A stretch of 64,000 nucleotides of DNA from Armatimonadota bacterium (GCA_041690135.1 JAWLHY010000004.1:128001-192000); one strand, 5' to 3'; positions 10,364-55,200 are shown, counted from the stretch's first letter. A program made the numbers and translations. Notes: generated from the sequence alone by a model not told the origin.

Positions 10364-11626
10364 ATGCTCTACCGGTACGGCATTGTGGCGCTCGTCGTCC
10401 TGATGCCCTGGCACGAAATCATCGTACGGCTCTGGCCGCCCCTGCGCATCTGGGATGAGGTGCTTCTCCTGCTGCTGGCCGGGGCGTTGGTCCGCGACTC
10501 CCTGCGCGAGCGAACCCTCCCGGCGCGCCGTCTGCTGCTCCCCATGGCGGCGCTTCTGGGCGTGGCTTCCGTTTCGGGGATCGCAAACCAGCTCCCCCCG
10601 GGACATGCGGCGGCGGGCATCCGGGCGCTCTTTCCGTACATGGTGGTGGGCTTGGCCGCCGCGAAGCTCCGGGAAGAGGCCGCGATCTGGCGAATTCTGC
10701 GGCTGATGGTCCTCATGGGCACGGTGGCGGCCCTCTACGGCATCGCCAGCTATCTCATGTTCCGTGTCTACGATGGCCGCAGGTTCATGCCCCTGCAGCC
10801 GGGTAATCTCGCCGAGGCCGTGCTGCTCTATCCCTACCAGTGCGGCGGCTATCCTTCCGGCTACCGGCTGGTCGGTACCATCCTGAATGACAACTATATG
10901 GGGGACTGGTTGGCCATGCTGGTACCGGTCGCCTTCGCGATGGTGAAGGTGGAAACACTCCCCATCCGCCGAGGCGGGTACCTGCTGGCGGTAATCGTGA
11001 TGACCATTGCCCTGGCCTGGACCTTTTCCCGAGCAGCATACGCCGCATTCGGAGTGGTCCTGCTCCTAACCGCCTGGAGAGTCGACCGCCGCATCCTTCT
11101 AGTCCTACCGCTCTTGGGCATCTCCGCCGCTCTCCTGGCATTTCCGGCGGATGTGTACCGGTTCTCGAATATCAGAGCGACCGAAGGGGGACGCGTGGCC
11201 GCCGTAAGAAAGGCCGCCGCCGTGCAGACGAGAAGTCCGCTTTACGGACGCGGCCCCGGAACTTCCGGCGTGATGGACCTTCACTATGCTCGCATCGCTG
11301 CCCAGATGGGACTGCTCGGGCTCGCAACCTTTGCCTGGCTGCTGCTGGCGAGCCTGGGGCTGACCCGCCGCGATACCCGAAGATCTCCGAATTGCGCCAC
11401 ACTATCGTCCGTATTGCCCATCAGCATGGGGGCTATCATGGTGGCGGCATTCGGTGGAGATGTCTGGGAAATTCCCCAACTGGCCTATACGTTCTGGACG
11501 GTTGCCGGTCTGCTCCAGGCTATGCCCGCAAGTGCAGGGTTCCGGAGCCCTGCTAACGATCCGGAGAGCGGCGATCAAACAATCCGTGTTGTCGCAGCAA
11601 GCGTACCGGTCGGATCCAGGGGGTAA
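10364..11626 (+). CDS. O-antigen ligase/Wzy-like membrane protein
   Basis: About 10-12 hydrophobic helices; RLVGTILNDNYMG, TFSRAAY, PLYGRGPG and QMGLLGL patterns. Confidence 0.75.
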   Translation: MLYRYGIVALVVLMPWHEIIVRLWPPLRIWDEVLLLLLAGALVRDSLRERTLPARRLLLPMAALLGVASVSGIANQLPPGHAAAGIRALFPYMVVGLAAAKLREEAAIWRILRLMVLMGTVAALYGIASYLMFRVYDGRRFMPLQPGNLAEAVLLYPYQCGGYPSGYRLVGTILNDNYMGDWLAMLVPVAFAMVKVETLPIRRGGYLLAVIVMTIALAWTFSRAAYAAFGVVLLLTAWRVDRRILLVLPLLGISAALLAFPADVYRFSNIRATEGGRVAAVRKAAAVQTRSPLYGRGPGTSGVMDLHYARIAAQMGLLGLATFAWLLLASLGLTRRDTRRSPNCATLSSVLPISMGAIMVAAFGGDVWEIPQLAYTFWTVAGLLQAMPASAGFRSPANDPESGDQTIRVVAASVPVGSRG

Positions 11627-12776
11627 GCCAGACCAAGCCGGGCGGAAGCGGCAGTTCGGACCAGTCCGGCGTGTTGGGCGATAGAACCCCGCGACAATAT
11701 CGCAACTGGTCCCGGAAGCGCTCCATTCCCAACAGGTCCAGGCGGACGTGCTGGAGAAGACCATGCGGCGTAATCGGAAGCGCACGCAAGCGGCGCGCAT
11801 AGTGCGCCGCTAGAACCTCTGCCGCTGGGTCCTGCGGCAATCGAGCCAGCACCCCTTGCGCAACGGTGCTATCCAATAGCTCGGCGCAAAGCAGCAAGGC
11901 CAACTGCACCCGTCGCAGGGTGCCGCTGCGCTGTGCCAAGCGACAACCATACTCCCAGTCCGCAGTCCCGTTGACGTGCAGGAGGGCCGTCAAATCGACG
12001 GCATAGCCCAGGCAGTCCCAGTGGTGGCGCGCCGCATGGACCGCGAGACAGACCAACTGGTCCTCTGGGGCAAGCGAATAAATGCGCCGCCCGAGCACGA
12101 AGCCCTCCCGGCGGCGTTGCCGAAGTTCCGCCATGTCCAGTTCGGCAAAGTACCGGCTCGAAACGCGCCAGTGCACTTCCAGGAGCACACGGTCCTCGGC
12201 CCGCAGGAACTGGAGGTGGTATCCCTCGCGAATCAGCTGCGCCGTCTGCTCCGGAGTGAGGGAGGGTGTAGCCTGGTAACCCCTCTCCACCAGCAGTTCC
12301 TGAACCCGGAAAAGCTCGGCTTCCGGAACGAGCAGATCCAGGTCCCGGAAGGACCGCTTTTCGGGGCTCCCGTAAAGACTTGCCGCCAATGCGGGTCCTT
12401 TATAGGCAATGACTTCGATCCCATGGCGGCCGAGCAGTTCGACCACCCGAAAAAGCTCCGCGGTCAGTTGCAGAGCTCGACGCGCTCCCTGCGACAGAAG
12501 CGGCGAGAGCTGGCCGCCGAGAGCCTGGGCAGCTTCGCCGTGCAGCGACCCAAGCACTCCTGCCGCCTGGGAAGATACCCGGTGGTACCGGCAGAGGGCA
12601 GCCACGCTTTCCGGAGCAAACGATCCGGTTAAGGCTCTCGCTGCATCCTCCAGAGGACGCGTGCCCAGACCCGCTCGCAGCAGGGTCAGTAGGATTTCAA
12701 AATCGGCATCACGCGTGTCCAGTGGAGTGGCTCTTTCCGTCCGCGAAGGGTTCCCTTCGGCCGATCCCGACCTCAC
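11553..12776 (-). CDS. Lasso-cluster-type nucleotidyltransferase family protein
   Basis: YKGPALAASLYG, RSFRDLDLLV (DxD), LEVHW and LAVHAARH motifs. Confidence 0.85.
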   Translation of the reverse strand: MRSGSAEGNPSRTERATPLDTRDADFEILLTLLRAGLGTRPLEDAARALTGSFAPESVAALCRYHRVSSQAAGVLGSLHGEAAQALGGQLSPLLSQGARRALQLTAELFRVVELLGRHGIEVIAYKGPALAASLYGSPEKRSFRDLDLLVPEAELFRVQELLVERGYQATPSLTPEQTAQLIREGYHLQFLRAEDRVLLEVHWRVSSRYFAELDMAELRQRRREGFVLGRRIYSLAPEDQLVCLAVHAARHHWDCLGYAVDLTALLHVNGTADWEYGCRLAQRSGTLRRVQLALLLCAELLDSTVAQGVLARLPQDPAAEVLAAHYARRLRALPITPHGLLQHVRLDLLGMERFRDQLRYCRGVLSPNTPDWSELPLPPGLVWLTPWIRPVRLLRQHGLFDRRSPDR

Positions 12777-12927
12777 CCAGGATCACTGAAATATACGCGA
12801 ATCGGATGGCCGGAGTGTGGCACACCGTGGAATCAAGCCACGAGGTACGGCCACTCGTCGCGCGAGCAACCGACAATCGTCGCGGGAGCATCGCGAACAA
12901 CCCGCGGCTCATCCTAGGGAGTGCACT

Positions 12928-13425
12928 GTGGCCGCGAGGGCAGACGAAGAACGAAAAGAGCGGGGTACGAGTTGGCGCATCCGGGGTATTGCACCCCACG
13001 AGTGGGGCTTGCTGGCAAGTGCCTGGGCAGCGCTGTTGATCGTAGATCTCGCGCTTCGGCTTTCCGGCTACCCGAAGGTGCGCCATTGGAAAGCATTCCA
13101 GGCCCGTTCGCAGCGCGCCACCGGTTCACCGCCCGGGGAACCGCAGATCACCCGGCTTTATCAGCTCGTCGCTATCGCGGCCCGCCACCATCTTTATCCC
13201 ATGCTCTGTTTGCGACGCGCCCTGGTCCTGAAGTGGCTCCTCGCCCGGCAAGGACTGGAAACCGAACTCCGATGGGGAGTCGCTCGCCACACGCCTGCGC
13301 TGAACGCCCATGCGTGGTTGACCTGGAACGGGAGGCCAATTGGTGAGCCTCGAGACCCCCACGAAACTTACACGGAATTGACTGCGGAAGGAAGTGGGAT
13401 TGAGCGCCGTCTGCGGAATAGTTGA
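12928..13425 (+). CDS. Lasso peptide leader peptidase (B2, transglutaminase-like)
   Basis: CLRRALVLKWLL...LRWGVAR...LNAHAWL catalytic Cys/His pattern; GTG start at 12928 follows AGGGAG (start uncertain). Confidence 0.88.
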   Translation: MAARADEERKERGTSWRIRGIAPHEWGLLASAWAALLIVDLALRLSGYPKVRHWKAFQARSQRATGSPPGEPQITRLYQLVAIAARHHLYPMLCLRRALVLKWLLARQGLETELRWGVARHTPALNAHAWLTWNGRPIGEPRDPHETYTELTAEGSGIERRLRNS

Positions 13426-15274
13426 CTTCGAAGAGCGCCCGATAGATCCTGGCAAACTCGCCCGCATGGTCCGCGCGATAGCCTATCGCGGGCCGGACGG
13501 GGCGCATCCGTGGGTCCACCAGAACGTTGGGCTGGCGCATCTTGCCTTTGCAACAACGTCCGAAGCCGGACGAGAACGACAGCCGCTGGTAGACCCGGAA
13601 ACGGGAATCGCGCTGGTCGGCGATATCCGCATCGACAACCGGGAAGACCTGATCGCACGCCTCGCCGGAAGCGGTCAGCTGCATCTGAACACCCCCACCG
13701 ACATCGAACTGGCGTTGGCTGCCTACAAGCGCTGGAAGAACGAGTTTCCACGCGAAATTCTAGGCGATTTCGCCCTGGCGCTTTGGGACCCGCGCGAACG
13801 CCAACTCCTGTTGACCCGAGATATCTTTGGACTTCGGCAACTCGTATACGCGCCCGTGAACGGGACAGTGGTGTTCGGCACCACCGTGGGAGCGGTGCGC
13901 GCCGCGCTGTCCGGCGAGCCGCCAATCAATCCGCGCCTCTTGATGAGCCTCCTGCGGGAGGGGTTCGGAGTGTGGACCCGAGAAACGGCCTATGCCACGA
14001 TATTTCGGGTTCCGCCCGCCACTGTCCTGACCTTTCGCGATTGCACACCTGGGGAGACCACCTACTGGGTGCTCCACCCACGTGCCGAGCGACGCACCGA
14101 TACGGAATGGCTGGATGCGTTTCGCTCTACGTTCGAAGACGCGGTGCGAGTGCGTCTCCGAACGCCTGGTCCGGTCGCCGTAGTGGTAAGCGGCGGGCTC
14201 GATTCATCCTCTGTCGCCTGTGTTGGCCATCAACTCGCGGGAAGCCCCTCACCGGCGGGGGCTCTGCGCCTCTATTCATTAGCGCTTGAGCGCACTCCCC
14301 GTGCAGACGAGCGTCAATACCAACGTGCAGTCAGCGTCGCATGTTCGGGAAGGCCTTTCACGCCGATTCCCGGCGACGATCTTTGCGCGCTCCAGGAGTT
14401 TGGGCGCGATTCCGGCTTCGACCTGGATGAGCCGGAAGTCGAAGTGAACCGCAACTTCCTGTCAGTGCCCTTTCGCCGGGCCGCTTCCGATGGATGCCGG
14501 GTGGTCTTCACCGGCCACGGTGGCGACGAGGTGCTAGGCGGCAGAGCCTACTTTCAACCGGATCTTCTGGCGGATGTAGGGCTGCACCGCCTGTGGACAG
14601 AGTTGGAGCACTTTCGTCGTGGCTGCCGTCAACCCGCCTGGCGGCTCCTACTGTACACCTACGGAAGACAAATTATCCCGCGAGGGCTGGTGCGCGCCGC
14701 ACGCCGGTGGTCGTCTCCCCCTTCGCTCCGCAATCTGGAGTTTGCCCTGGATGTCAATTACGGGAGAAAAGACCGGCGGGCCATGCCCACCTGCTCCGCG
14801 CAGGTAGTCCACGAACGGCTGGACCGTGGCTACTACCGAGCCCACCTGCAAATGCTCGAGCGGGTTGCGGCCAACGAGAGCCTCGAAATCCGCCTGCCTT
14901 TCCTCGACCGTCGCGTTGTCGAATGCCTGGTCTCTATACCGCCACACTTGCGCTTCCGTGACGGCTGGTCGAAATACATCCTACGACACGCGCTTCGCGA
15001 CTATCTTCCGGAGTGTGTGCGGGAACGCAGAAGCCACAGCGAATTCTCCGGATTGATCGACCGCGGACTGCTTGAAGTCAATCGTCAACGCGTGGAGGCC
15101 CTCCTCTCCGGCTCACACGTCGCCCGGGAAGGGTTGCTGGATCCTTCCGCGATCGCGCGTATGTGGAGTGTCTATCGTCAGGGAAGCGTAGCGACCGAGC
15201 GCCTACTCTTGACCCGACTGCTTTGTGTCGAAGAATGGCTACGAACGCGAAACCTTTCCCACGAAATCGGATAG
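13400..15274 (+). CDS. Lasso peptide cyclase (C; asparagine synthetase homolog)
   Basis: MSAVCG N-terminus (TTG start, Cys not at position 2), RGPDG, SGGLDSS ATP-pyrophosphatase loop, TGHGGDE and RLPFLDRRVVE; lies between B2 and the precursor. Confidence 0.9.
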   Translation: MSAVCGIVDFEERPIDPGKLARMVRAIAYRGPDGAHPWVHQNVGLAHLAFATTSEAGRERQPLVDPETGIALVGDIRIDNREDLIARLAGSGQLHLNTPTDIELALAAYKRWKNEFPREILGDFALALWDPRERQLLLTRDIFGLRQLVYAPVNGTVVFGTTVGAVRAALSGEPPINPRLLMSLLREGFGVWTRETAYATIFRVPPATVLTFRDCTPGETTYWVLHPRAERRTDTEWLDAFRSTFEDAVRVRLRTPGPVAVVVSGGLDSSSVACVGHQLAGSPSPAGALRLYSLALERTPRADERQYQRAVSVACSGRPFTPIPGDDLCALQEFGRDSGFDLDEPEVEVNRNFLSVPFRRAASDGCRVVFTGHGGDEVLGGRAYFQPDLLADVGLHRLWTELEHFRRGCRQPAWRLLLYTYGRQIIPRGLVRAARRWSSPPSLRNLEFALDVNYGRKDRRAMPTCSAQVVHERLDRGYYRAHLQMLERVAANESLEIRLPFLDRRVVECLVSIPPHLRFRDGWSKYILRHALRDYLPECVRERRSHSEFSGLIDRGLLEVNRQRVEALLSGSHVAREGLLDPSAIARMWSVYRQGSVATERLLLTRLLCVEEWLRTRNLSHEIG

Positions 15275-15325
15275 ACTCAGGCTGAGAGCACTGTCTCACA
15301 ACCGGATGGCTGTTAGGAGCTAGCG

Positions 15326-15508
15326 ATGATGACTGAAACGGGTACCGCCACGACTGAAGCCGGGGCCGCAGGCCCAAAACAGAATCCGATGCCGCCTTCC
15401 CGGAAGCCTTACGAAGCGCCGCGGATCACCCACCTGGGGCAGGTCGAAGCGGTGACTCAAGATGGTGGCGGGGCGTTCGTCGACGGTCTGGGAACTTCAC
15501 AAATCTAA
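15326..15508 (+). CDS. Lasso peptide precursor (A); predicted core DGGGAFVDGLGTSQI at 15461-15505
   Basis: RBS AGGAG; leader YEAPRITHLGQVEAVTQ places Y-17, P-14, I-12, G-8 and T-2 at canonical spacing; acceptor Asp at core position 8. Confidence 0.88.
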   Translation: MMTETGTATTEAGAAGPKQNPMPPSRKPYEAPRITHLGQVEAVTQDGGGAFVDGLGTSQI

Positions 15509-15523
15509 GGGCACAGCTATCAG

Positions 15524-16708
15524 TTGGGGGGCGGTCTGCAACCTACGCTCGTTCCCATCTCCCTTGACCCGTCCCTCCTCGCGTCCTATGCGACAGCATT
15601 TGGCCTCGCGGACGCCAAGGAGGGTGCACAGTATCTCGCCACGGCCATAGCTACCGGATCTTTCTGGAACGATTACCAGCCGAGTGTACTCGTCATTCGA
15701 CTGGATAGCGATCCGATAGCGGCCGCTATCGGCTTCTTCGATGCCGCTGCCCGTTCCCGATTGGCAGCACAGGCGAAGGCGCTGCATGCGGGCTTGCGCC
15801 GCTTGAAATATGTTGACGATCAAACGGTCCGATCGGCTGTTTCACAACTGGCAAGCAAGCTCCGCGACCGCTTCGGCTGTGACTTTCTCCAATCGTGTCG
15901 CTTCACGGCCATCCCACGGGGCGGGCTGATTGTTCTTGGCTGGCTCTCGTATGAACTGGGTCTGAAACCGGACCAACTAGAGCCTCCCGACGACGCAGGC
16001 GTGCCCCTGGTAGTTGTAGACGACTGTGCGATCACCGGAGCCCGCTTTGGCGCCTGGCTCCGGAAAAACCCACACCGCAATGTCGTCTTCGCACATCTGT
16101 ACTCCCCGGCTGCCACCTGCAGGAATATCCTGGATCGCGAGCCGCGAGTGCAGGAGTGTCTTTCCGCCTTCGACCTCGCTGACTATGGTAGGGAAGATCT
16201 CGGCGGTGGCCTGGGCGATTGGGAACAGGAATGGACCGCCCGTATGAGCGGCTCTCGCTACTGGATTGGCCGCACCGACTACGTTTGCTTTCCCTGGGGT
16301 GAACCCGATCGGTCGGTTGCCGACCCGCTAACGGGCGGAACTTTGCCCGCCTGGCCTCTGGTCCCCGGGTGCCCAAACAAGAGCCCCACACCTCTCCAGG
16401 ACCCTGGGGTGACTGTAAGCTCGATTCCGGGTACCTTGGGGGGACATCGCCTGCCGGATGGCGTCGTTTACGGTGAGGTGGCGGGTTGGACCGTGGTAGG
16501 AAACCTGTACACGGGGGCCTGCATAGGCTTGCGGGAGAGCGGTGCCAGCTTCTGGGAAGCCCTGCGGATATCCTCTTCCCGCCGAGAAGCCCTGGAGACT
16601 CTGCAGGCGGAATATGGGGTCGATGCCGCGACTCTCGAAACGGACCTGGAACGGTTCGTCGCCGAATTGGCACAACTCGGTTTTCTCCACTCCCCAGCCG
16701 ATGCCTGA
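15524..16708 (+). CDS. Type I phosphoribosyltransferase-like domain fused to a C-terminal PqqD/RRE (lasso B1) domain
   Basis: FTAIPRGG (PPi loop), LVVVDDCAITG (PRPP-binding motif) and VCFPW; the last ~85 aa (GLRESGASFWEAL...LQAEYGVDAATLETDLERFVAELAQLGFL) match the PqqD pattern. Start uncertain. Confidence 0.8.
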   Translation: MGGGLQPTLVPISLDPSLLASYATAFGLADAKEGAQYLATAIATGSFWNDYQPSVLVIRLDSDPIAAAIGFFDAAARSRLAAQAKALHAGLRRLKYVDDQTVRSAVSQLASKLRDRFGCDFLQSCRFTAIPRGGLIVLGWLSYELGLKPDQLEPPDDAGVPLVVVDDCAITGARFGAWLRKNPHRNVVFAHLYSPAATCRNILDREPRVQECLSAFDLADYGREDLGGGLGDWEQEWTARMSGSRYWIGRTDYVCFPWGEPDRSVADPLTGGTLPAWPLVPGCPNKSPTPLQDPGVTVSSIPGTLGGHRLPDGVVYGEVAGWTVVGNLYTGACIGLRESGASFWEALRISSSRREALETLQAEYGVDAATLETDLERFVAELAQLGFLHSPADA

Positions 16709-17735
16709 TCTAGAGTTCCAGCAAGCCTCCCCGTCCCGCTCATACCCCTCGCCACCGACGTATGCAGTCTACGGCGTGTGCTTCGATTCGGATTTCGCGT
16801 TTCGCACACCGCTCCCTCGCGTGACGGGGAAACCCTCCTTTCGTTACCTCTGCCGGGCCGACCGATACCGAGTACCGGTCCCAGCGCCAGAGATCTATCG
16901 GAGCCGAAGGGTCGCTACCGATGGCACTCCCAGCCTTATCCTCCGACAACATGGGGATACGATTGCCTTTTGCCTCCCTGACGGCACCCATCTCGTTCTC
17001 CGTCCGGACCAGATCGAGGCATACGCGGCGGATGAGCGACAGCAAACGATGGCGGAAATCTGCCTACTCGGGACCGTTCTCTCCTACTTGCGAGAGAGGG
17101 AAGGAATCCCTGTTCTCCACGCATCCGTAGTCGCGGTGGAGGGGAAAGGGGTGGCATTCCTGGCAGGAAACGGCGGGGGAAAGAGCAGTTTGGCGGCCGC
17201 TCTGATGCAGAAGGGATATCCGTTGGTGTCGGATGACCTGCTGCCGATCTTGACCCACTCGGGACGCTACGTAGCCGCCGCCGGGTACCCGCAGATGCGC
17301 TTCTGGCCGCAGGAGGCCCGCTTCTTCGTGGATGAGAGCAACAAACTAGAGCGGGTCCATCCGGACTTGGAAAAGCGACGCGTGCCGGTCGGTCTCCACG
17401 GCTTTGGCTCGTTCTGCGCACACGCTCTTCCCCTCTCGGCGATTTACCTACCGGAGCGCCACCCTGCCGCAGAACTCCAAGCACGTGTGGAAATTGTCCC
17501 CGTTCCACCTCGCGAGGCACTCGTTGCCCTGACTTCCCAGTTATTCATCCGCCCCCTCCTTGCCGAGTTCGGTTGGCTGGGCGAGCGGCTGCGCTTCCTC
17601 GCGCAGTTGACCCAGTGTATCCCCGTGCGACGACTACGCTATCCCTCGGGGATGAGCCGATTGGGCGACGTCGTGGAGCGAATCCTCGAAGACTTGGGCC
17701 ACGATCCACACCCAGGGTCCCCTAGCCCAACGTAA
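16701..17735 (+). CDS. HPr-kinase-like lasso peptide kinase
   Basis: LHASVV, Walker A AGNGGGKSS and LVSDD motifs; overlaps the PRTase-RRE stop. Confidence 0.85.
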   Translation: MPDLEFQQASPSRSYPSPPTYAVYGVCFDSDFAFRTPLPRVTGKPSFRYLCRADRYRVPVPAPEIYRSRRVATDGTPSLILRQHGDTIAFCLPDGTHLVLRPDQIEAYAADERQQTMAEICLLGTVLSYLREREGIPVLHASVVAVEGKGVAFLAGNGGGKSSLAAALMQKGYPLVSDDLLPILTHSGRYVAAAGYPQMRFWPQEARFFVDESNKLERVHPDLEKRRVPVGLHGFGSFCAHALPLSAIYLPERHPAAELQARVEIVPVPPREALVALTSQLFIRPLLAEFGWLGERLRFLAQLTQCIPVRRLRYPSGMSRLGDVVERILEDLGHDPHPGSPSPT

Positions 17736-17777: not shown

Positions 17778-17808
17778 AAAAAAAACCGGCTGGGTGACCC
17801 AGCCGGTT
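17778..17808 (-). terminator. Intrinsic terminator for the minus-strand surface-protein gene (possibly bidirectional)
   Basis: Perfect stem AACCGGCTGGG-tga-CCCAGCCGGTT with an A-run on the left, which reads as a U-run on the minus strand. Confidence 0.75.
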
Positions 17809-17876
17809 CAGGTTGATGGTGGCTTTTAGGGAACTGCCGCACGGGCCGCCATTCCTCAGTTGCCACTACAATTGCC

Positions 17877-20800
17877 CTACTTTTTCTTGCCTTTGCCCTT
17901 TCCGCCGCCAGCCTCGCTGTCACTGGTGCCGCCGCCGGTGGTATCACCGCTGCTACTACCACCAGTGCTACCACTCGACGATCCCGAAATCGCTACGGTG
18001 GCGGTATCCGCCGCCGTCACCGTCTCGTCGCCGTAGCGAGCCGTCACCGTGGCCGTGTTGGTCACGTCCTGCGCCGTGGGGGTCAGGTTGATGGTGTCGA
18101 TCTTGGCCGGCGAGTTGTGGACATCCGGGGAGGTCACCGTGCCGAACCCACTCGTCCCGAAGGCCGCCGCACTCACTTCCACGCTGTAGATGCTCCGCAC
18201 TTCCCAGTTCGGATCCCCCACCGGAGAGTTGGTCGTATAGCCGTGGTAGGCCGGCGACTGGTTCAGGTTGTCGCTCGCGGACGTGCTCACTGCCAGCACG
18301 TGCGCTGCGCTCCCCTTGATCATGTAGCCGTCCCCACCACTCACTCCCAACGTGCCGTAGCGCGAGGGGAACTGGCTCGAAGCGCTGATGCAGTCCACGT
18401 AGAAGTCCAGCACCACCTGCCCGGCGGCGTTGGTGAACCGGAACTCCGCGTGATCGCTGTTCAGCAAGTCCTTGAAAGTATGACCCTTCCCGGACCCGCC
18501 TCGGTATCCAGGCGCCGATCCCGTGCCGTAGGTGTTGTCCACCACGGCCAGGCTCTGGATGAACGTCGCCTTCACGTTGCCGTTCGCCAGCTTCTCGGCA
18601 ATCAGCACCCCGGCGATCGTGCCATCGGAGGAAGCCATCACCAATGGCGGGACCACCGTCTTCGTCAGCGTCGTGCTGGCGCCAGGGGCCAGAGAAGCCA
18701 CCGTCCCCACCACAAAATCGTCCGCTCCGAACTCCGGCGTGGCGTTGTCGTCAGTCACCGTCACGTCCGTGAGGGTCACGTCGCCCGTATTGGTTACCTT
18801 GTAAGTGTAAGTCACCGGTTGGCCGGGTGTGGCCTGCGCGGTAGCCGCTGTCTTCTCCAGCGCGATCTCCGGCTCGCCGCCCACGATTCCGGCGTCCACC
18901 GACAGGTCAGTCTGACCGGGGGCGAGGGTGATAACCCCGGTGCGCCCGGTGGCCGCGTCCACGTCGCTGTCGGAGAGGTCGCTGCCCTGGTTGGCGGTGG
19001 TGAACTGCGCGCCACCTGCGGGGACAAACTCCACACTATAGCTGCCGGCCTGAAGACCTTCAAACAGGTAGAGGCCGTCCGCATCCGTGGTATCCACGGC
19101 CACGACACTGCCGCTGCCATTCAGCAGCCGCACGGTCACTCCGGAGACGCCCGTCTCGCCGCTGTCCTGCTGACCATTTCCGTTGGCGTCGAGCCATACC
19201 CGGTCGCCCAGGTTTGCCGGCAGGGGCTTGTAGCCGAAGTCCACGTCCAGCCGGATGGCGTTCACCCCCAGCGTCGTTAGCGCCGTGTGCGCCGTCCCCA
19301 CGCCGTCCAGGTCGTAGGTCTGCCCCAGCCCGGGCAGCAGCGTGCTCGGGTCCACCACTACCGTGTAGCTCCCCGCTTCCAGTTGCGTGAACAGGTACTG
19401 CCCATTCGCGCCGGTCACCTGGCTCGCCACCACGTTTCCGTCCGCGTCCCGCAACTGCACGGTGACGCCCGTGAGCCCGGCCTCGCCTGGGTCCTGCAGG
19501 CCGTCCCCGTCCTCGTCCAGCCACACCCGGTCGCCCAGGTTCGAGTTGAACAACCGCGGCGCATAGCCGAAGTCATAGGTCAACACGTCTTCCGCCGACA
19601 CGTTCCGGGTCAGCACATCCCCGCCCGTGGTGCTGCGCAACTCCGCCAGCGGACCGCCCGGCAGGAAGTTGTCCGGAGCTACCCGCACGGTGTAGTCGCC
19701 CGCCGTGGCCACCGGGTAGTAGTAGAGGCCGTCCACGTTCGTGTAGATGTAGTCCAACAACGTGCCATTGCTGTCATACACCCCCAACTTCACCCCGGCA
19801 ATACCCGCGTTCAGCTCGTCCTGGTCACCCTCGTGATCGCTGTCCAGCCACACGTAGTCGCCCAGGATCCCCGCCACCGGCCCCGGTGGGAACCGCAGCT
19901 TCGGATCTCCGTTCTCGTCCATTCCCACCGCGTCGTGGAAGAACCGGAAGGCGTTCAGGTTGTGCAGGTCCATCCCCTTCACCTTCACCTGGTAGTTGCC
20001 CGCCCGGAACCGCCCGTTGGCGTTCACATCCGTTGGTGCCACCGTCGTCACCCCGTCGGCCGACGCCACCGGGCTGTAGTCTGCCTGGCTCCGGTCCAGC
20101 GGGTCCGTGGTGATCAGGAACCGCTCCCACTCCTGGTTGCCGGACGTGTTCAGGTTCCGGAACTCCTTCACGCTCGGCTCCGGCTGCAGCACCTTCCCCT
20201 CCGCCGTGTCGACCAGTGCATGCGTGCGACACACACTGTATTCCACGCTCGGCTCTCGCCGCTGATACGCCACGCCGGTGTCGTCGTTGGGCGCGCCTTT
20301 CCCCTTCGCCCCTTCCGCCAACGTGTACTTGTTCGCCCACAGGGGCAGCACCGCCGACGTATCCGGGTCGTCTGTGTCGTTTGTTTGCGGGACCAGTGCC
20401 GTGTTATTGCCGTAGTCCAGGTCCCCGTCCCACACTTCCAGGAAGGCCGTGTCCTCCGGTACCGTCAGGTTGATATCCCAGGTGCCGTCATAGTTAGTGG
20501 GGGTGGTGGCGGGCCAAGCCGGGTAGATGGTGGTGATGTCGTTCATCGAATACATGGGCGACATCACCGAGATTGCCTGGGCGAGAATGCTGATGGTGGC
20601 GTTGCTGCGGATCTTGAAACAGCTCACCGAGTTCACGTCCGGAAGCGGGTTCTCGATGCGCAGCACGTAGTAGAAATGCCGGTTGTGCGGGTTGCGCGCC
20701 GCGGAGTTGGTGCGGATGACGCGGTTGCGGTCTTCCGGCGCGCTCGGCGGGCTCAACTCCGACTGGTCGGCCTGGAGGTTATACCAGGCGTTGTTGGGCA

Positions 20801-21266
20801 TGGGGCTCTTGTTCAGACCGCCGGCAATGGTGCCGTCGCCGCCGTTGCCCATCCACCGGCCGACCAGGTAACGCCCGGAAGCATCGCCGCGGGGGTCGGC
20901 GTAGAGGGAGTACCGCAGGGAAGTGTAGAAGGCGTCCCAGTGGCCGTGCTGGAAATTGCCGCTCATAACCGGCGCTTGGGGCGGACCGGAAGCGCCGGTG
21001 TCGCCGTCGAAGATGCCGATCTCGAAGTCGGTGGCGTCGGCCGGCACCTCGAAGGCGATGGTGATGGTGTTGGCGGAGAGGGTCGCGGGGGCGGGCCCGC
21101 CGGCCATCACGAGGGAGCGGCCGTCGAGGACGTTCCCGGTGGGAAAGTAGTTGTAGTCGCTCGACGCCTGGGCTCGCGCGCTACGCACGGCGACCGAGGC
21201 GGGGAGGAGCAGGGCCGCCAGCACCCCGGCCATGCCGAGGAAGGTCGACCTCTTCAGAAACCTCAT
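17877..21266 (-). CDS. Large secreted/surface protein with three SdrD-B (Cna-B-like) repeats and a DUF11/DUF7507-like Ig domain
   Basis: RBS GGAGG; signal peptide; LGD(Y/R)VWLD x3; TYTYKVTNTGDVTLTDVTVTDD; Ser/Gly tail ending GKGKGKKK. Confidence 0.85.
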   Translation of the reverse strand: MRFLKRSTFLGMAGVLAALLLPASVAVRSARAQASSDYNYFPTGNVLDGRSLVMAGGPAPATLSANTITIAFEVPADATDFEIGIFDGDTGASGPPQAPVMSGNFQHGHWDAFYTSLRYSLYADPRGDASGRYLVGRWMGNGGDGTIAGGLNKSPMPNNAWYNLQADQSELSPPSAPEDRNRVIRTNSAARNPHNRHFYYVLRIENPLPDVNSVSCFKIRSNATISILAQAISVMSPMYSMNDITTIYPAWPATTPTNYDGTWDINLTVPEDTAFLEVWDGDLDYGNNTALVPQTNDTDDPDTSAVLPLWANKYTLAEGAKGKGAPNDDTGVAYQRREPSVEYSVCRTHALVDTAEGKVLQPEPSVKEFRNLNTSGNQEWERFLITTDPLDRSQADYSPVASADGVTTVAPTDVNANGRFRAGNYQVKVKGMDLHNLNAFRFFHDAVGMDENGDPKLRFPPGPVAGILGDYVWLDSDHEGDQDELNAGIAGVKLGVYDSNGTLLDYIYTNVDGLYYYPVATAGDYTVRVAPDNFLPGGPLAELRSTTGGDVLTRNVSAEDVLTYDFGYAPRLFNSNLGDRVWLDEDGDGLQDPGEAGLTGVTVQLRDADGNVVASQVTGANGQYLFTQLEAGSYTVVVDPSTLLPGLGQTYDLDGVGTAHTALTTLGVNAIRLDVDFGYKPLPANLGDRVWLDANGNGQQDSGETGVSGVTVRLLNGSGSVVAVDTTDADGLYLFEGLQAGSYSVEFVPAGGAQFTTANQGSDLSDSDVDAATGRTGVITLAPGQTDLSVDAGIVGGEPEIALEKTAATAQATPGQPVTYTYKVTNTGDVTLTDVTVTDDNATPEFGADDFVVGTVASLAPGASTTLTKTVVPPLVMASSDGTIAGVLIAEKLANGNVKATFIQSLAVVDNTYGTGSAPGYRGGSGKGHTFKDLLNSDHAEFRFTNAAGQVVLDFYVDCISASSQFPSRYGTLGVSGGDGYMIKGSAAHVLAVSTSASDNLNQSPAYHGYTTNSPVGDPNWEVRSIYSVEVSAAAFGTSGFGTVTSPDVHNSPAKIDTINLTPTAQDVTNTATVTARYGDETVTAADTATVAISGSSSGSTGGSSSGDTTGGGTSDSEAGGGKGKGKKK

Positions 21267-21987
21267 TACGAACCTCCAATTATCTGGAAGCGGATGATTC
21301 CCGGATCGCTGCCGGGTTGCACGTCGGTTGGCTGGGTCTTGACCAAACAATACTGCTAGTGGACGACAGTCCCTACACCCTAAGTGCCACAGTCGATCCA
21401 CCTTCTGAAGGGATGGTTGTCCCTATGGGCAGCCATATTGGGGGACTTTCATCCACCAGGAGAAAGGTTTGCGGTAGGTCGCGGGGGCTAGAGGCGAGTA
21501 GCTCTACTACTGACGGTGACCATACCATTCCTTTGGTGGACAAGCATTCAACCGTTCGGTTTATAAGAAGGCAAATGGTACTGAGAAGGGGGGGCCGGAG
21601 GTCCGTTGACCTCGCGAGTACCGCACGGTCGAGATTCACGTGAGAGTGCCTCGTAACGTGAACGAGGCTCATGGGTCCCTGGGCGCGGGGTGGGAGTCCC
21701 GGCGGTAGTCCGGTACTTCGTGCGACCACCGATTCCGAACCCCGGGCTGCCGTCCGGCCTCCCCTCCCGCGCCAAATGAGGGCGATTGGGTCAAACTGTC
21801 GCTCACGGGAGAGAGGGAGCACCGACCCGGACCCCGGACTGCCGTCTCGCGCCGGATGGGGATTGGGATCCGGGCTTATGGCGCGCGTTAGGGTTGAAGG
21901 ATGAGAACCCGCAGCTCCGCGAGGAGGGTAGGGCGAAGCAATTCGCAGTAACCCTTGATCACCGTCGGCATGGTTGGCGGATCCCGC

Positions 21988-22821: not shown

Positions 22822-23083
22822 GAACCTGCCCTCCCGTGACCTGCCCGCACGATATTCGTACTCGCAATCCAATTCTCCCAAACCTCCGCGGGCTTCTGCG
22901 TGGACAGTCATTCCGTGCCTATCCGTCTCGTCCGGACCCTCCGTGTCGAAAGCTCTTACCGCCGTAGATGACACGCACCTTGACACGGAGACGTTTGCCT
23001 CCACGCGACTGCGGGTAGGGTAGAGCCGTCGGTAGGCGGGCGGAGAAGCGCTGTGGCCCGTCGTGGAGGCACGGCTGGGAAGT

Positions 23084-24394
23084 ATGGCATTTCGGCGCTC
23101 GGAACTTGACCGCATCACCGACCCGGACACCTTCCTCTGGGCCACCGGGATCGAAGACACGTTCATCACAGACCCATGGCCCGCTACCGGGCGCATCCTC
23201 GATGAGTACGAGCTGACCGGGCACTATCAGCGCCGGGATGAAGACCTGGACCTGATGGCCGAACTGGGAGTCCGGATGGCTCGCTATGGGATTCCCTGGC
23301 ACCGGGTGAATCCCGAGCCGGACCAGTGGGATTGGTCCTGGTCGGACCAGGCGTTGGAGGGTCTCCTCGATCGCGGGGTGAATCCCATCGTCGATCTCGT
23401 CCACTACGGCCTTCCCGGCTGGCTGGAAGGAGCCTTCCTGAACCCCGACTTCCCCGAGCGGATGGCGGAGTATTCCGGGCGCCTGGCCCAGCGGTTTCGC
23501 GGCCGCATCCGGTGGTACACCCCCCTCAACGAACCTCGCATCACCGCCTGGTACTGCGGCAAGCTGGGTTGGTGGCCGCCCTATCGTCGGGGCTGGAAGG
23601 GGTTCGTCGCGGTGATGCTCGGCCTGGCGCGGGGCATCGTCCGGACATGCGAGGCGGTCCGGAGCGTGGATCCGGAAGTGGTCTTCGTCCACGTGGACGC
23701 GACCGACATTTACCTCTCGCCGGACCCCAACCTGCAGGAGGAGGTCCACCGGCGACAGCAGATCGGCTTCCTGGCGCTGGACCTGGTAAGCGGGAGGATC
23801 ACCGAAGACCACCCGCTTTGCGGCTGGCTGCTGCGGCACGGCGCGCGGGAAGACGACCTGGCGTGGTTCCGCGACCACGCGGTCCGGCTCGACGTGGTGG
23901 GTCTGAACATGTACCCCATGTTTTCCCAGAAGCGCCTCGTCCGTTCGCCGCGCGGTCTACGTATCCAGATGCCTTACGGCTCGGATGAAATGGTGGAACG
24001 GCTGGTGGAGTGCTATTGGGAACACTACCGGCTGCCCATGATGATCACGGAAACGGCGGCGCGAGGGCCTGTCCATCGCAGGCGCGCGTGGCTGGACCAA
24101 TCGGTGGGAGCGATCCGCCGCCTGCGGGCACGGGGCGTTCCCCTGGTAGGCTACACCTGGTGGCCTATGTATGCGCTGGTGGCCTGGGCCTACCGCCAGA
24201 GCCACCGGCCCGCGAGCGAGTACCTGGAGCAAATGGGGCTCTGGGATCTGGACCCGCACCCCGAAGCTAACCTCCGGCGCGTGAAAACGCCGCTGGTGGA
24301 TGCCTATCGGGCGCTGGTGGACGGCGGCTGCGAAGCCGTAGGGAAACTGGCGGCGCGGGGACCAACCCAGGGCGGAGGACAGACGAGTGTTTAG
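23084..24394 (+). CDS. Glycoside hydrolase family 1-like beta-glycosidase
   Basis: LTGHYQR, RYGIPWHRV, DLVHYG, acid/base PLNEP and nucleophile ITET. Confidence 0.85.
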   Translation: MAFRRSELDRITDPDTFLWATGIEDTFITDPWPATGRILDEYELTGHYQRRDEDLDLMAELGVRMARYGIPWHRVNPEPDQWDWSWSDQALEGLLDRGVNPIVDLVHYGLPGWLEGAFLNPDFPERMAEYSGRLAQRFRGRIRWYTPLNEPRITAWYCGKLGWWPPYRRGWKGFVAVMLGLARGIVRTCEAVRSVDPEVVFVHVDATDIYLSPDPNLQEEVHRRQQIGFLALDLVSGRITEDHPLCGWLLRHGAREDDLAWFRDHAVRLDVVGLNMYPMFSQKRLVRSPRGLRIQMPYGSDEMVERLVECYWEHYRLPMMITETAARGPVHRRRAWLDQSVGAIRRLRARGVPLVGYTWWPMYALVAWAYRQSHRPASEYLEQMGLWDLDPHPEANLRRVKTPLVDAYRALVDGGCEAVGKLAARGPTQGGGQTSV

Positions 24395-25586
24395 GAGCTT
24401 CTTCCTGGCTGGCTTCGAATGCGCGACCGGTTACAACAAGCACAACGAATGGATCGATCAGGTGGCGGCCACGCACCACGACCGCTTCGTTAACGAAGAT
24501 TATGCGCTGCTGCGCGAAGTGGGCCTCCACGGCGCGCGGGAAAGCGTCCGCTGGCCGCTGGTCGATCGAGGTGGCGGCAAGTACGACTTCTCTACGATCG
24601 CGCCCTTCATCCGGGCCAGCCGGGAAAACGAGGTCGAGGTGATCTGGGACCTCTTCCATTACGGATATCCGGACGGTCTCGACCTCTTCTCCGCCGAGTT
24701 CCCCCGGCGGTTTGCCGACTACTGCCATGCCGTGGCCAAGTACATCTCGGCCCGTACCGACGGCACCTGTTACTTCACCCCCGTCAACGAGCCGAGTTTC
24801 TACTCCTGGGCTGGCGGGCAGGTCGGGCAGTTTGCACCGCATGTGAAGGGGCGTGGGGGCGAACTGAAGCGCCGGCTCATGGCTGCGGCCATCCAGGGAA
24901 TTGAGGCGATCTGGGCCGCCTGTCCGGGAGCGCGGATCGTCAATGTCGATCCGATCTGCCGCGTTGTGCCCGCACTCGACGAGCCGCACCGTCGAGACGA
25001 AGCAAATCACTTCAACAACTGCGACGTCTTCGAGTGCTGGGACATGCTGGCCGGAAAGCTCCACCCCGAGATGGGGGGGAGCCCTCGGCACCTCGACATC
25101 ATCGGCATCAACTATTACTGGACCAATCAGTGGGAAGTTGGCCATCCCCACCGCCTGCTCGACCCTTCCGACCCGCGGTGGTGGCCGCTCCGTAACCTGG
25201 TGCGGCTGGTGTGGGAGCGTTACGAGCAGGACGTGCTGATTACCGAGACCAGCCACCGCGACGAAATGCGCCCAGCGTGGGTGCGGGAAGTCGCCGCGGA
25301 TTGCGAGGCACTCCTCGACGAAGACGTGCCCTTACGCGGCGCCTGTCTCTACCCCATCCTGGGCATGCCCGAGTGGCACGCACCGGACGAGTGGACGCGC
25401 ATGGGGCTGTGGGACCTCTTCCCGCACGAGCAGGGACTGAAGCGGGTGGTCCACCAGGAGATGCTCGCAGCCCTCCGCGAGGCTCACCGCCTGGACCGCC
25501 GGCTCGAACGGGCCGAGAAGCGCATGCTGGAGCAGCGGCACCCGGAAGAACTGACTACTTCCGGCCGGCACTCTTCCAGGAACTGA
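24387..25586 (+). CDS. Second GH1-like beta-glycosidase
   Basis: FRSFFLAGFEC, WDLFHYGYP, TPVNEP, GINYY and ITETS; overlaps the upstream GH gene. Confidence 0.8.
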   Translation: MFRSFFLAGFECATGYNKHNEWIDQVAATHHDRFVNEDYALLREVGLHGARESVRWPLVDRGGGKYDFSTIAPFIRASRENEVEVIWDLFHYGYPDGLDLFSAEFPRRFADYCHAVAKYISARTDGTCYFTPVNEPSFYSWAGGQVGQFAPHVKGRGGELKRRLMAAAIQGIEAIWAACPGARIVNVDPICRVVPALDEPHRRDEANHFNNCDVFECWDMLAGKLHPEMGGSPRHLDIIGINYYWTNQWEVGHPHRLLDPSDPRWWPLRNLVRLVWERYEQDVLITETSHRDEMRPAWVREVAADCEALLDEDVPLRGACLYPILGMPEWHAPDEWTRMGLWDLFPHEQGLKRVVHQEMLAALREAHRLDRRLERAEKRMLEQRHPEELTTSGRHSSRN

Positions 25587-52049: not shown

Positions 52050-52247
52050 TCCATTCCGCCGATCTTGCTTTTCTGAGTCTCTTGACCGGTGCCCTGCCCT
52101 TCTGAGGCATAGAAAAGCCACGGCCGTGCGATTCCGGTGCGGCCGCGATCCTAATCCTTACCACATTCACGGTGAGGGTTTCGCCCTCTCCGTGTCGAAC
52201 CTATCCCTATGCCGCTGCCAGCCCCTGCGCCGAACCGAGGTCCAGTG

Positions 52248-55200
52248 ATGTACCGACGTCTTCTCCTACTTCTGCTCTGCCTCTTTACTCTCACGGCCGC
52301 CGCGCCCAATTGGGCACAGTCTCGCCGCAGCCGCGAGAAGACCCAGACGAGCCGGAAGAAGTCCCCCGACCGCTCGACGTCCAAGCGCTCCACGTCAAAG
52401 GAGTCCGTGTCGAAGCGGACGTCGCGGACTGGCAAGTCGGAGAAGACGACCCGAACCACGGCGAAGAAGTCGGACAAGAAGCCGGAGAAAGCTGCCGCAA
52501 AGAACACCGGCAAGGCGTCTCCCAAAGCCACCGCGGCGAAGAAGCCCGAGGCCCCGGCGAAGAAGACTGCGGCCACCGATAAGCCCGCCCCAGCCAAGGC
52601 GGCCGCGACACCCGCGGCACCTGCCACCGCCGCGGCGCCGAAGACCGGCGGTGAGCCGTCGCCCGCGACCGGAAACCCGCTCGCGGACGGCGACCGCTGG
52701 TACGGCGAGCAGAGCTGGGCCGCCGCGCTGAAGGCCTACCGGCAGGCGGTGAACCGGAAGCTCGTTCCGGCCGAGCGGCGGGCGCTGGTCGATTACCGCA
52801 TCGCGCGTTGCTACGGGCTCACGAAGGACTGGAGCCAGGCGACGAACGAGCCGTACGCGGTCGCCACGCGGTATCCGAACACCGTGTGGGACGCCCGCAT
52901 GCGCGCCTGGTTGATGCGCGTCTACCTCTCGGCGCCGCACACCGGCTGGAAGGTGGGGGAGCGCTACTTCCGCGGCGAAGAGATGCCGGAGGTCTCCGGC
53001 GATGCCCGGGCCGAGCGCGTCAGCCTGCATGAGGATGACATGCGCAAGGCGGTCCTCTACGGGGAACAGGCCAAAGCGCTTTATGAGAAGCTGCGCAAGG
53101 ACCTCCCCGACACCACCGAAGAGGCGGACCACGCCGCGGATCTCGCCCGCACCGTGGCCACGATCCAGCTTCCGGACTGGGCCTGGGAGCAGAAGTGGAA
53201 GGGACCGCAGGACCCGTCCTGGACGCCCGAGCCCGAGGCGGACCTCGACCCGACATGGGCGCCGCCGCGCAAGGTGCTGCAACTCTTCCTGGCGGCGGAG
53301 CGCCTCGGGGGTGAGAAACAGAAGCCGCTGGCCCGGCTGGCCCAGGCGACCTGGCTGCGGGGTTACCACCAGTTAATGGCGCGTGTCGCCGTGAAGCACC
53401 CGTTAATGGCGCGTGTCGCCGTGAAGCACCCGCCGATGGGGCCGCCGGAGCCGATCCCGTACCCGTACCAGGAGCGGGATGCGGTCTTCGCCCTGCGGAG
53501 TATGATCCAGGACTACCCCGCCCACCCGGAAGCGGAGCATGCCCGCCTGATGGTCGGCGACTGGCTGAACCAGGACGGTCAATACGCGGCGGCGCTCGCC
53601 GTCTATCGCGGGCTGCTGGTCGATAAGCCCGAGAGCCCCTGGGCGCCGCACGCGAAGACCGCCTCGGACGAGATCACCCGTAAGGCGCTGGTGATCGAGA
53701 GTCCCGCGCCACAGGCTCCGGGCAGCCGGGCGCGCCTGGAGCTCTCCGCGCGGAATATCCCGGTCCTCAAGTTCACAGCCCAGCGCGTGAAGCTGGAAGA
53801 GGCGGTGAAGGACGCGAAGGTCCTGATGCGGACGCGGAACGGCTTCGAGGAGCTGTTCGCGCGGATCGGCAAGGTCGCCGGCCTCAAGAAATACCTCCAT
53901 GCGGAGGAGCCGGTCACGTGGGAAGCGTCGCTTGCCGCTTCCGAGCCGGGCCAGCCCGCGCCCGCGGAGTTCGCCCCCCTCCGCCGGACGGTATCCACGC
54001 CCCTCACGAAGAACGGCGCCTACCTGGTGCAGGCGGACGGCGGCCCCGTACGGCAGGCAGTCCTCCTCATCATCTCCGACCTGGCCGTGATCCAGATCGT
54101 CGACGACCGGCGCGCCCACGCTATGGTGGTGAATGCCGCCACCGGCGCTCCCGTGAAGGAGGCCTCCGCCCTGATCCGGGAGTTGTATGAAGACGCCAAG
54201 GATAAGGAAGCGATCTCCGCCGCCACGGTGACCACGGATGCGGATGGGGTGGGGGAGAAAGCGCTCTCGCCGGCCCGCAAACGCACGGAAGGGGTGGCGG
54301 TCTTCGCCTGGAAGGACGATCGCTACGCCTTCACCCCCAGCGCCGGTTACGGGGCGAGAGCGGAAGACGAAAGCGAGCACACCGCCCTCGTTTACACCGA
54401 CCGGCCCGTCTACCGGCCGGGGCAAAGCGTCTACTACCGGGCGCTCCTCGCGCAACGCAAACCGGACCAAGCCTGGAAGCCCCTTGCCGGCCTCAAGGCC
54501 GTGATCCGTCTCTACAACGATCAGGACGCCGTAGTGGAGGAGCAAAAGGTTACGGCCAATCGCTTCGGCAGCGTCCACGGCCGGCTACGGTTGGGGCCGA
54601 GTGCCGGGTTGGGGCAGTATCGGCTTGCTGTCGCCTGGCCCCAGGATGAGGAGAGTGACCGCCCCGAAGCGCGGGTGGCCGTGGAGCGGAATAGCGGCAC
54701 CTTCTGGGTGGAGGAATACAAGAAGCCCGAGTTTCAGGTAACCGTCTCCCCGGCCATACCCGCCGGCACCTACCCCCGGCCCGGCGAACCGGTCGAGTTG
54801 AACGTCACCGCCCGGTATTACTTCGGCGCGCCTGTGGGGGGCGCGTCGGTGAGGTATCGTGTCGAGGCGGAGCAGACCTATCCGGTTTCACCTTTTGACG
54901 GCCGGCTGGGAGAGGAGGACCAGGCCTTCTATGCTTACTGGAGCATTGGCGATCCGGATGAAGCTCCCTATGACTTAACTCACGGCTCCATGGAGCTAGC
55001 GGCCGGCACGGCGGTGACCGACGCCCAGGGGAAGGCGGTCATTCGGTTCAAGCGACCGGTTCCAAAACCGGGAACCAAACCGATGCACCTCGCTTTCCAG
55101 GTGGTGGCCGAGGTTACGGATGCAAGCCGCCGCACCATCGAAGGGCGCGGCAAGGTGGTGGCCCCGGACACGCAGTTCGACGCGTTCCTCCGGCCACGGA

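Follow-up and report, generated by a model that had tools for sequence, protein, structure and literature searches.

We analysed a 64,000-nucleotide stretch from an Armatimonadota bacterium (GCA_041690135.1, JAWLHY010000004.1:128001-192000; below, the window, with positions counted from its first letter), in which a lasso peptide gene cluster encodes a phosphoribosyltransferase (PRTase) fused to an RRE, the recognition element of RiPPs (peptides made by ribosomes and modified after translation). Open reading frames (ORFs) and their translation reveal six genes across 11553-17735, all free of internal stops. The gene order, the divergent nucleotidyltransferase (NT) on the minus strand and the tight or overlapping junctions described in a first-pass annotation of this DNA are borne out by coordinates and family matches. 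The cluster comprises the following genes and features:

11553-12776, minus strand: PF14907 (NTP_transf_5) nucleotidyltransferase of the PsmN/BsfN/LppN kind (PF14907, E 4e-47)
12928-13425, plus strand: lasso leader peptidase B2 (NF033537, 64 bits; cut-off 33)
13400-15274, plus strand: lasso cyclase C (Asn_synthase; NF033535)
15326-15508, plus strand: precursor A, 60 amino acids (leader profile, 23.4 bits; weak leader-model matches)
15461-15505, plus strand: predicted 15-residue core DGGGAFVDGLGTSQI (cleavage site deduced by the Thr(-2) rule)
15494-15496, plus strand: Thr12 codon, the conserved Ser/Thr four residues from the core end
15524-16708, plus strand: PRTase-RRE fusion, 394 amino acids (PqqD, E 6e-12)
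15524-15799, plus strand: residues 1-92 of the fusion, a small N-terminal alpha/beta domain (conserved, with R59 and G70)
15800-16300, plus strand: type I phosphoribosyltransferase fold of the fusion, residues 93-259 (PRGG, the pyrophosphate or PPi loop; DDCxx(T/S)GxR, the loop for phosphoribosyl pyrophosphate, PRPP)
16442-16693, plus strand: C-terminal RRE (PqqD) of the fusion, as a class II lasso cluster requires
16701-17735, plus strand: HPr-type peptide kinase (Hpr_kinase_C, weak, E 4e-6)

Overlaps of 26 nt (B2/C) and 8 nt (PRTase/kinase) and gaps of 51 nt (C-A) and 15 nt (A-PRTase) join the plus-strand genes, and 151 nt separate the divergent NT and B2. Catalytic motifs are intact in B2, C, the kinase and the NT. 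B2, whose likely start is the GTG at 12928 behind a GGGAG ribosome site (the longest ORF opens at 12817), carries the CLRRAL (Cys) and AHAW (His) motifs of a transglutaminase-like leader peptidase, as in class II lasso clusters. The cyclase, which likely starts at 13400, has an asparagine-synthetase fold with the ATP loop SGGLDSS and lacks a Cys at position 2; its best model, NF033535, reaches 358 bits, below the cut-off of 525, and the cyclases of sister PRTase clusters score similarly (271-332). A DLD metal motif lies at residue 145 of the NT, the real start of which is possibly downstream of the longest-ORF start. In the kinase, His140, Gly158, Gly160, Lys161, Ser162, Asp178 and Asp179 stand at the spacing of BsfK, with one Gly replaced by Ala155, and include the HPr-type His-Lys-Asp-Asp motif (H140, K161, D178, D179).

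The first-pass annotation had called this a complete cluster with three tailoring enzymes. Kinase, NT and PRTase are indeed identified, the first two by profile matches and the PRTase by structure and homologues, and the core genes are in place; the word complete needs qualifying in that the cluster holds no discrete B1, its sole RRE being the one fused to the PRTase, and in that no ABC exporter was found among the scanned ORFs of the window. Such an exporter is present in 15 of 33 sister genome loci with long flanks. The G+C content at third codon positions (GC3) of the cluster is 0.62-0.69, compared with 0.75 and 0.85 in two flanking genes, and a full PRT domain was found in none of 400 other genomes sampled from the same phylum, which together suggests that the cluster was acquired by transfer.

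Pfam does not call a PRTase in the window fusion alone. The assignment is confirmed by structure, and among 121 homologues 84 match PRTase-CE and 66 match Pribosyltran (E up to 0.1). A type I PRT fold with a PPi loop and a PRPP-binding loop is present, and phosphoribose transfer from PRPP is the predicted activity. Both loop motifs are invariant among the fusion homologues, and R59, R174, D220, E260 and D262 are near-invariant across phyla; for the N-terminal domain, structure comparison gave no clear match. The earlier suggestion that a PRTase allows new chemistry is supported: the enzyme is real, its fusion to an RRE makes it leader-directed, and novel chemistry is likely.

Genome contigs yielded 143 relatives of the fusion and metagenome contigs 182, and the best 80 of each were analysed; viral contigs yielded none. 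According to record titles these relatives cover 11 bacterial phyla and methanogenic archaea, the latter with PRTase-RRE lasso clusters that contain tandem precursors (L033, L037, L044). Neighbouring genes were scored by profiles made from the window's own genes and their matches. The main set comprised 36 loci with flanks of 8 kb or more on both sides, after three duplicates had been dropped from 39; a cyclase and a precursor were each present in 32 of them, the kinase in 33, B2 in 24 and a discrete RRE in 23. As a control, we used 14 cyanobacterial lasso loci picked by cyclase alone, three of them cut short, which contain the PRT domain in 0, the kinase in 14 and the NT in 6 cases; five control genomes searched whole yielded no PRT domain either.

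The kinase lies directly beside the fusion gene in 59 of 89 loci with at least 1 kb on each side, compared with 5 of 89 for the NT, and a quick tree pairs the fusion with two separate kinase clades. In one cyanobacterial lineage, kinase and fusion are adjacent and the cyclase is located elsewhere. Where a PRTase locus lacks the kinase, a related one is encoded elsewhere, beside a discrete RRE, in all five genomes tested. Since all 14 control clusters also contain the kinase, its co-occurrence is no enrichment over cyanobacterial lasso clusters, and adjacency and the cyclase-less cassettes carry the argument. Judged from its sequence, the locus belongs with the lasso clusters that encode a kinase and an NT, and has in addition a PRTase-RRE, which is partnered with the kinase. 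Kinase and PRTase-RRE cassettes apart from cyclase and B2 were seen at L016, L021, L028, L040 and L072, several of them behind a CHAT-domain gene, and at L021 a leader-bearing peptide without Asp/Glu at position 7-9 sits next to the cassette.

The precursor leader follows the pattern YxxP-I-x3-G-x5-T with Thr at -2, and among 20 aligned precursors Y29, P32, G38 and T44 are invariant and Asp8 near-invariant, as expected of a class II precursor. The predicted core begins with Asp1, has Asp8 as the predicted ring acceptor and ends in Ser-Gln-Ile, with Thr12 adjoining Ser13. A leader profile retrieved 132 precursors in PRTase loci, of which nine from second clusters were moved to the control; removal of duplicates left 105. 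Asp or Glu occupies position 7-9 in 97 of these 105 cores (Asp in 95). Gly-Ser or Gly-Thr occurs in the tail of 84 of the 97, compared with 49 in shuffles (maximum 63 in 2000), and a Ser/Thr stands four residues from the end in 22 of 34 short cores, compared with 8.0 in shuffles (maximum 17). The window PRT domain clusters with those of short-core clusters (FastTree, support 90). The same motif is found in 15 of 20 control cores and hence tracks the kinase rather than the PRTase. Beyond it, 45 of the 84 tails contain no Phe, Trp, Tyr or Arg. The earlier model of a modified C-terminal Ser, taken from paeninodin and pseudomycoidin, does not fit a core whose last residue is Ile; a final Ser is found in only 6 of the 105 PRTase-linked cores.

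Long cores of cyanobacterial kinase-type clusters without PRTase (L104-L110) keep a Gly-Ser-hydrophobic-Asp motif, often with two Cys, which is likely an internal phosphorylation site. Ten PRTase clusters (L032, L035, L041, L059, L066, L067, L068, L151, L177, L189) each contain two full-length asparagine-synthetase-like genes, of which the second may encode another amide-forming enzyme; their cores are mostly of the Thr1/Val1 kind, with the pattern T-G-x-T-x-P-G-x-D. A PRMT-like methyltransferase recurs in four PRTase clusters (L011, L031, L039, L065).

What we observe directly are the genes and their folds, the unbroken motifs, the conserved Gly-Ser/Thr and the linkage of kinase and PRTase; each step of the possible pathway below, and the order of the steps, we infer. 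The fused RRE likely grips the precursor via its leader. The kinase likely attaches a phosphate to the internal Thr12, and onto this phosphate the PRTase domain likely moves 5-phosphoribose from PRPP, for a gain of 292 Da in all. Thereafter B2 would remove the leader, and C would join Asp1 to Asp8 to form the ring. The bulky group would come to lie at the crossing of tail and ring and could serve as a steric plug; where an NT is present, it would add a further group, most likely a hexose. We regard this sequence of events as plausible, if somewhat short of probable. It is in essence the alternative of an extended phospho-Thr/Ser that the first-pass annotation had placed second, and it is now the reading that we favour. 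More tentatively, and with some doubt, the cluster may stand for a widespread lasso subfamily in which a PRPP-derived ribose-phosphodiester on an internal phospho-Ser/Thr forms an enzyme-made steric plug on tails that often lack bulky residues, and in which, in clusters such as the present one, the NT extends it to a hexosyl or ADP-ribose-like group without NAD+; the fusion would then be the first peptide-directed type I PRTase in a RiPP pathway.

Several points weigh against this proposal. The precursors are related and not independent samples, so that the shuffle tests overstate independence, and Gly-Ser/Thr could have a structural role, as a turn at the site of threading, instead of being modified. 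Few PRTase-linked cores (3 of 105) begin with Asp, and the kinase occurs in all control clusters as well. The window fusion departs at 11 of 62 conserved positions, compared with a median of 1.5, in a narrow set of homologues; in a wider set it departs at 3 of 45, 46th worst of 144. In its structural model, as we read the secondary structure, a short helix takes the place that the flexible catalytic loop normally has. Nitrogen atoms are the usual acceptors for type I PRTases, and PRT folds also act as non-catalytic PRPP sensors.

PyrR and PurR are among the structural matches of the PRT domain, which may be a regulator or scaffold that binds PRPP or nucleotides rather than a transferase on the peptide. 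The fusion would then simply serve as B1, and the cluster would make a lasso peptide that resembles pseudomycoidin, phosphorylated and perhaps hexosylated, but carries its modification internally. We consider this unlikely, as 23 of the 36 loci also have a discrete RRE and as both PRPP loops and the five residues named above are near-invariant across phyla.

The same fold and motifs would also fit a PRTase that acts without the kinase and puts 5-phosphoribose straight on a side chain, the Thr/Ser hydroxyl or another one (+212 Da); the kinase would then mark a second site or the ribose. Thr12 and Ser13 are neighbours in the core, three of the 36 loci have no nearby kinase, and butirosin BtrL is a precedent for a PRTase that performs O-phosphoribosylation. 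However, the genomes of kinase-less loci carry a kinase elsewhere, and the Gly-Ser/Thr motif is present with the kinase alone, so that the kinase probably owns that residue; direct transfer to a hydroxyl is, in our view, quite unlikely.

The first-pass annotation had put forward a route that mirrors NAD biosynthesis: the PRTase would add phosphoribose and the NT would add AMP to its 5-phosphate, giving an ADP-ribose-like group of +541 Da (+621 Da on phospho-Thr). The expected co-occurrence of PRTase and NT exists, in this cluster and in 17 of the 36 sisters, but it is not obligate: the NT is no commoner with the PRTase than without it (17/36 and 6/14; Fisher p = 1), never occurs without the kinase, and is absent in 4 of 6 decidable loci of the PRTase clade to which the window fusion belongs. 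Four of the 17 NT loci also contain a second kinase, and a second kinase cluster may own the NT there. For NAD synthesis, moreover, cells rely on type II PRTases and on a nucleotidyltransferase of another fold. Together with the rarity of the NT directly beside the fusion, these counts weaken the route, which we now hold to be improbable. In its favour, the NT lies directly behind the PRTase gene in several loci from cyanobacteria (L001, L007, L012, L125), and all 10 tested genomes with an NT-less PRTase locus carry a PF14907 gene elsewhere, which may act in trans. Genes of this family are common in one class (78 of 121 genomes), with 7 of 7 PRTase genomes and 71 of 114 others positive (Fisher p = 0.05, two of the seven being pre-selected and genome size uncontrolled).

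Published work also points both ways. LppN was silent when expressed without a further partner or prior modification, as the route would allow, and deletion of lppN had no effect (PMC13381572). The single characterised homologue, PsmN, yields a hexose and not a nucleotide (PMC6993621), and the known ADP-ribosylated RiPP relies on an NAD-dependent ADP-ribosyltransferase (ART; PMC12912966). By analogy, we view the NT as an optional extra that would most likely add a hexose to a phosphate as PsmN does and that seems unneeded for the family's core chemistry.

Very improbable is a PRT fold repurposed on the phosphate, for example for an elimination to dehydrobutyrine (-18 Da) like the kinase-lyase pairs of other RiPP classes; the tight kinase pairing and the phosphate-binding loop would suit it, and a kinase with a partner is a common dehydration layout, but the full PRPP signature is kept, including the PPi loop and the DD pair, and we know of no lyase of PRT fold. 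That the window copy is decaying and gives little or no product, as its departures from conserved positions, a 2-residue deletion in the fusion, Asp1, the low GC3 and a truncated paralogue on contig C9 could indicate, is barely credible, given that there are no stops or frameshifts, all catalytic motifs are present and the fusion is no outlier in the wider set.

The truncated paralogue belongs to one of two further lasso-type loci in the same genome. L102 (G000:C9, 6967-16616) comprises a cyclase, a precursor (Gly1, Asp8, Gly-Thr at -4), an SdrD-like gene, a beta-propeller gene and a PRTase-RRE remnant without the catalytic core; B2 and kinase were not found within the 20 kb read. L103 (G000:C1, 6100-11300) is a cluster of RRE, cyclase, kinase, B2 and NT without PRTase. 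Further features of the window are the following:

10364-11626, plus strand: O-antigen-ligase-like membrane protein (weak Wzy_C match), its 3' end overlapping the NT 3' end by 74 nt
17783-17809, minus strand: terminator-like hairpin (found by pattern alone; 5 such patterns in the region, 5.2 expected by chance), which most likely belongs to the convergent SdrD-like gene
17877-21401, minus strand: large SdrD_B-repeat surface protein with a conserved N-terminal domain of ~420 amino acids without Pfam match
23063-25586, plus strand: tandem pair of GH1-like glycoside hydrolases, ordinary
52209-58838, plus strand: bacterial alpha-2-macroglobulin, 2210 amino acids, ordinary

An SdrD_B-repeat protein stands beside the cluster in 9 of 80 genome loci and is a recurrent neighbour of one subclade. 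Loci with this neighbour (L025, L031, L042, L047, L049, L055, L060, L064, L071, L137, L139, L170, L214), where a precursor was seen, are nearly always of the short-core type. Three more copies of the SdrD_B-repeat gene occur in this genome, one on C9 next to a lasso cyclase and two on C2 next to a PF14907-type gene.

Were the fusion an active PRTase, PRPP would join the co-substrates used on ribosomal peptides, and site-specific phosphoribosylation of peptides under the direction of a leader could serve lasso engineering and, as a tool, studies of ADP-ribosylation. This large family spans the phyla and archaea named above and is in print only as a model name. Its representative here is a small cluster (6 kb) with a sharp prediction, namely Thr12 and a shift of +80, +212 or +292 Da. 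The cluster may also reveal the substrates of PF14907 enzymes, which were silent or gave ambiguous results in two pathways already studied.

The fusion is already catalogued, and the literature we searched does not describe its function. It very probably belongs to RREFam048, 'Phosphoribosyl_Transferase_RRE', a hidden Markov model in Table S1 of the 2025 RRE-Finder update (cut-off 19 bits; PMC12710340), which names an RRE fused to a phosphoribosyltransferase, as in the window, and is given there without function or cluster type; the accessible main text of that update does not mention it, and neither the accessible 2020 RRE-Finder text nor its readable supplements mention a PRTase-RRE fusion. 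In the literature searched, which mostly excludes subscription journals, we found neither a report on a lasso cluster with a PRTase nor a ribose-phosphate decoration on a lasso peptide. Among characterised enzymes, the fusion shares ~21-24% identity with type I purine PRTases (Sulfolobus HGXPRT 4z1o, E. coli and Yersinia XGPRT), from which it differs by its extra N-terminal domain, its C-terminal RRE and its peptide-cluster context. It also lacks an Asp where 6-oxopurine PRTases carry their catalytic base.

Three peptide pathways come close to the window cluster, each in a different respect. The psm cluster of Bacillus pseudomycoides has the same split B, cyclase, HPr-type kinase and uncharacterised NTP transferase, and its product carries a sugar on the phosphate of a phospho-residue, like the extension proposed here, but modifies a C-terminal Ser and has a discrete B1, an ABC exporter and no PRTase-RRE, whereas the window core ends in Ile with Thr12 as candidate site (PMC6993621). 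The hexose on the pseudomycoidin phosphate depends on PsmN (PMC6993621; reviewed in PMC9266682; PMC11912497). The bsf cluster of Bradymonas sediminis likewise pairs a kinase with a nucleotidyltransferase, and BsfK, which shares the His/Gly/Lys/Ser/Asp-Asp motif of the window kinase, phosphorylates an internal Ser/Thr of its precursor with a boost from the RRE; it differs in its site, Ser3 in the ring, its leader Ile(-2), its discrete RRE and its lack of a PRTase (PMC10368454). Minviopeptin, finally, is likewise a RiPP with a ribose-phosphate group, but it is a triceptide that receives ADP-ribose from NAD+ through the ART MicD, whereas the pathway proposed for the window would draw on PRPP (PMC12912966).
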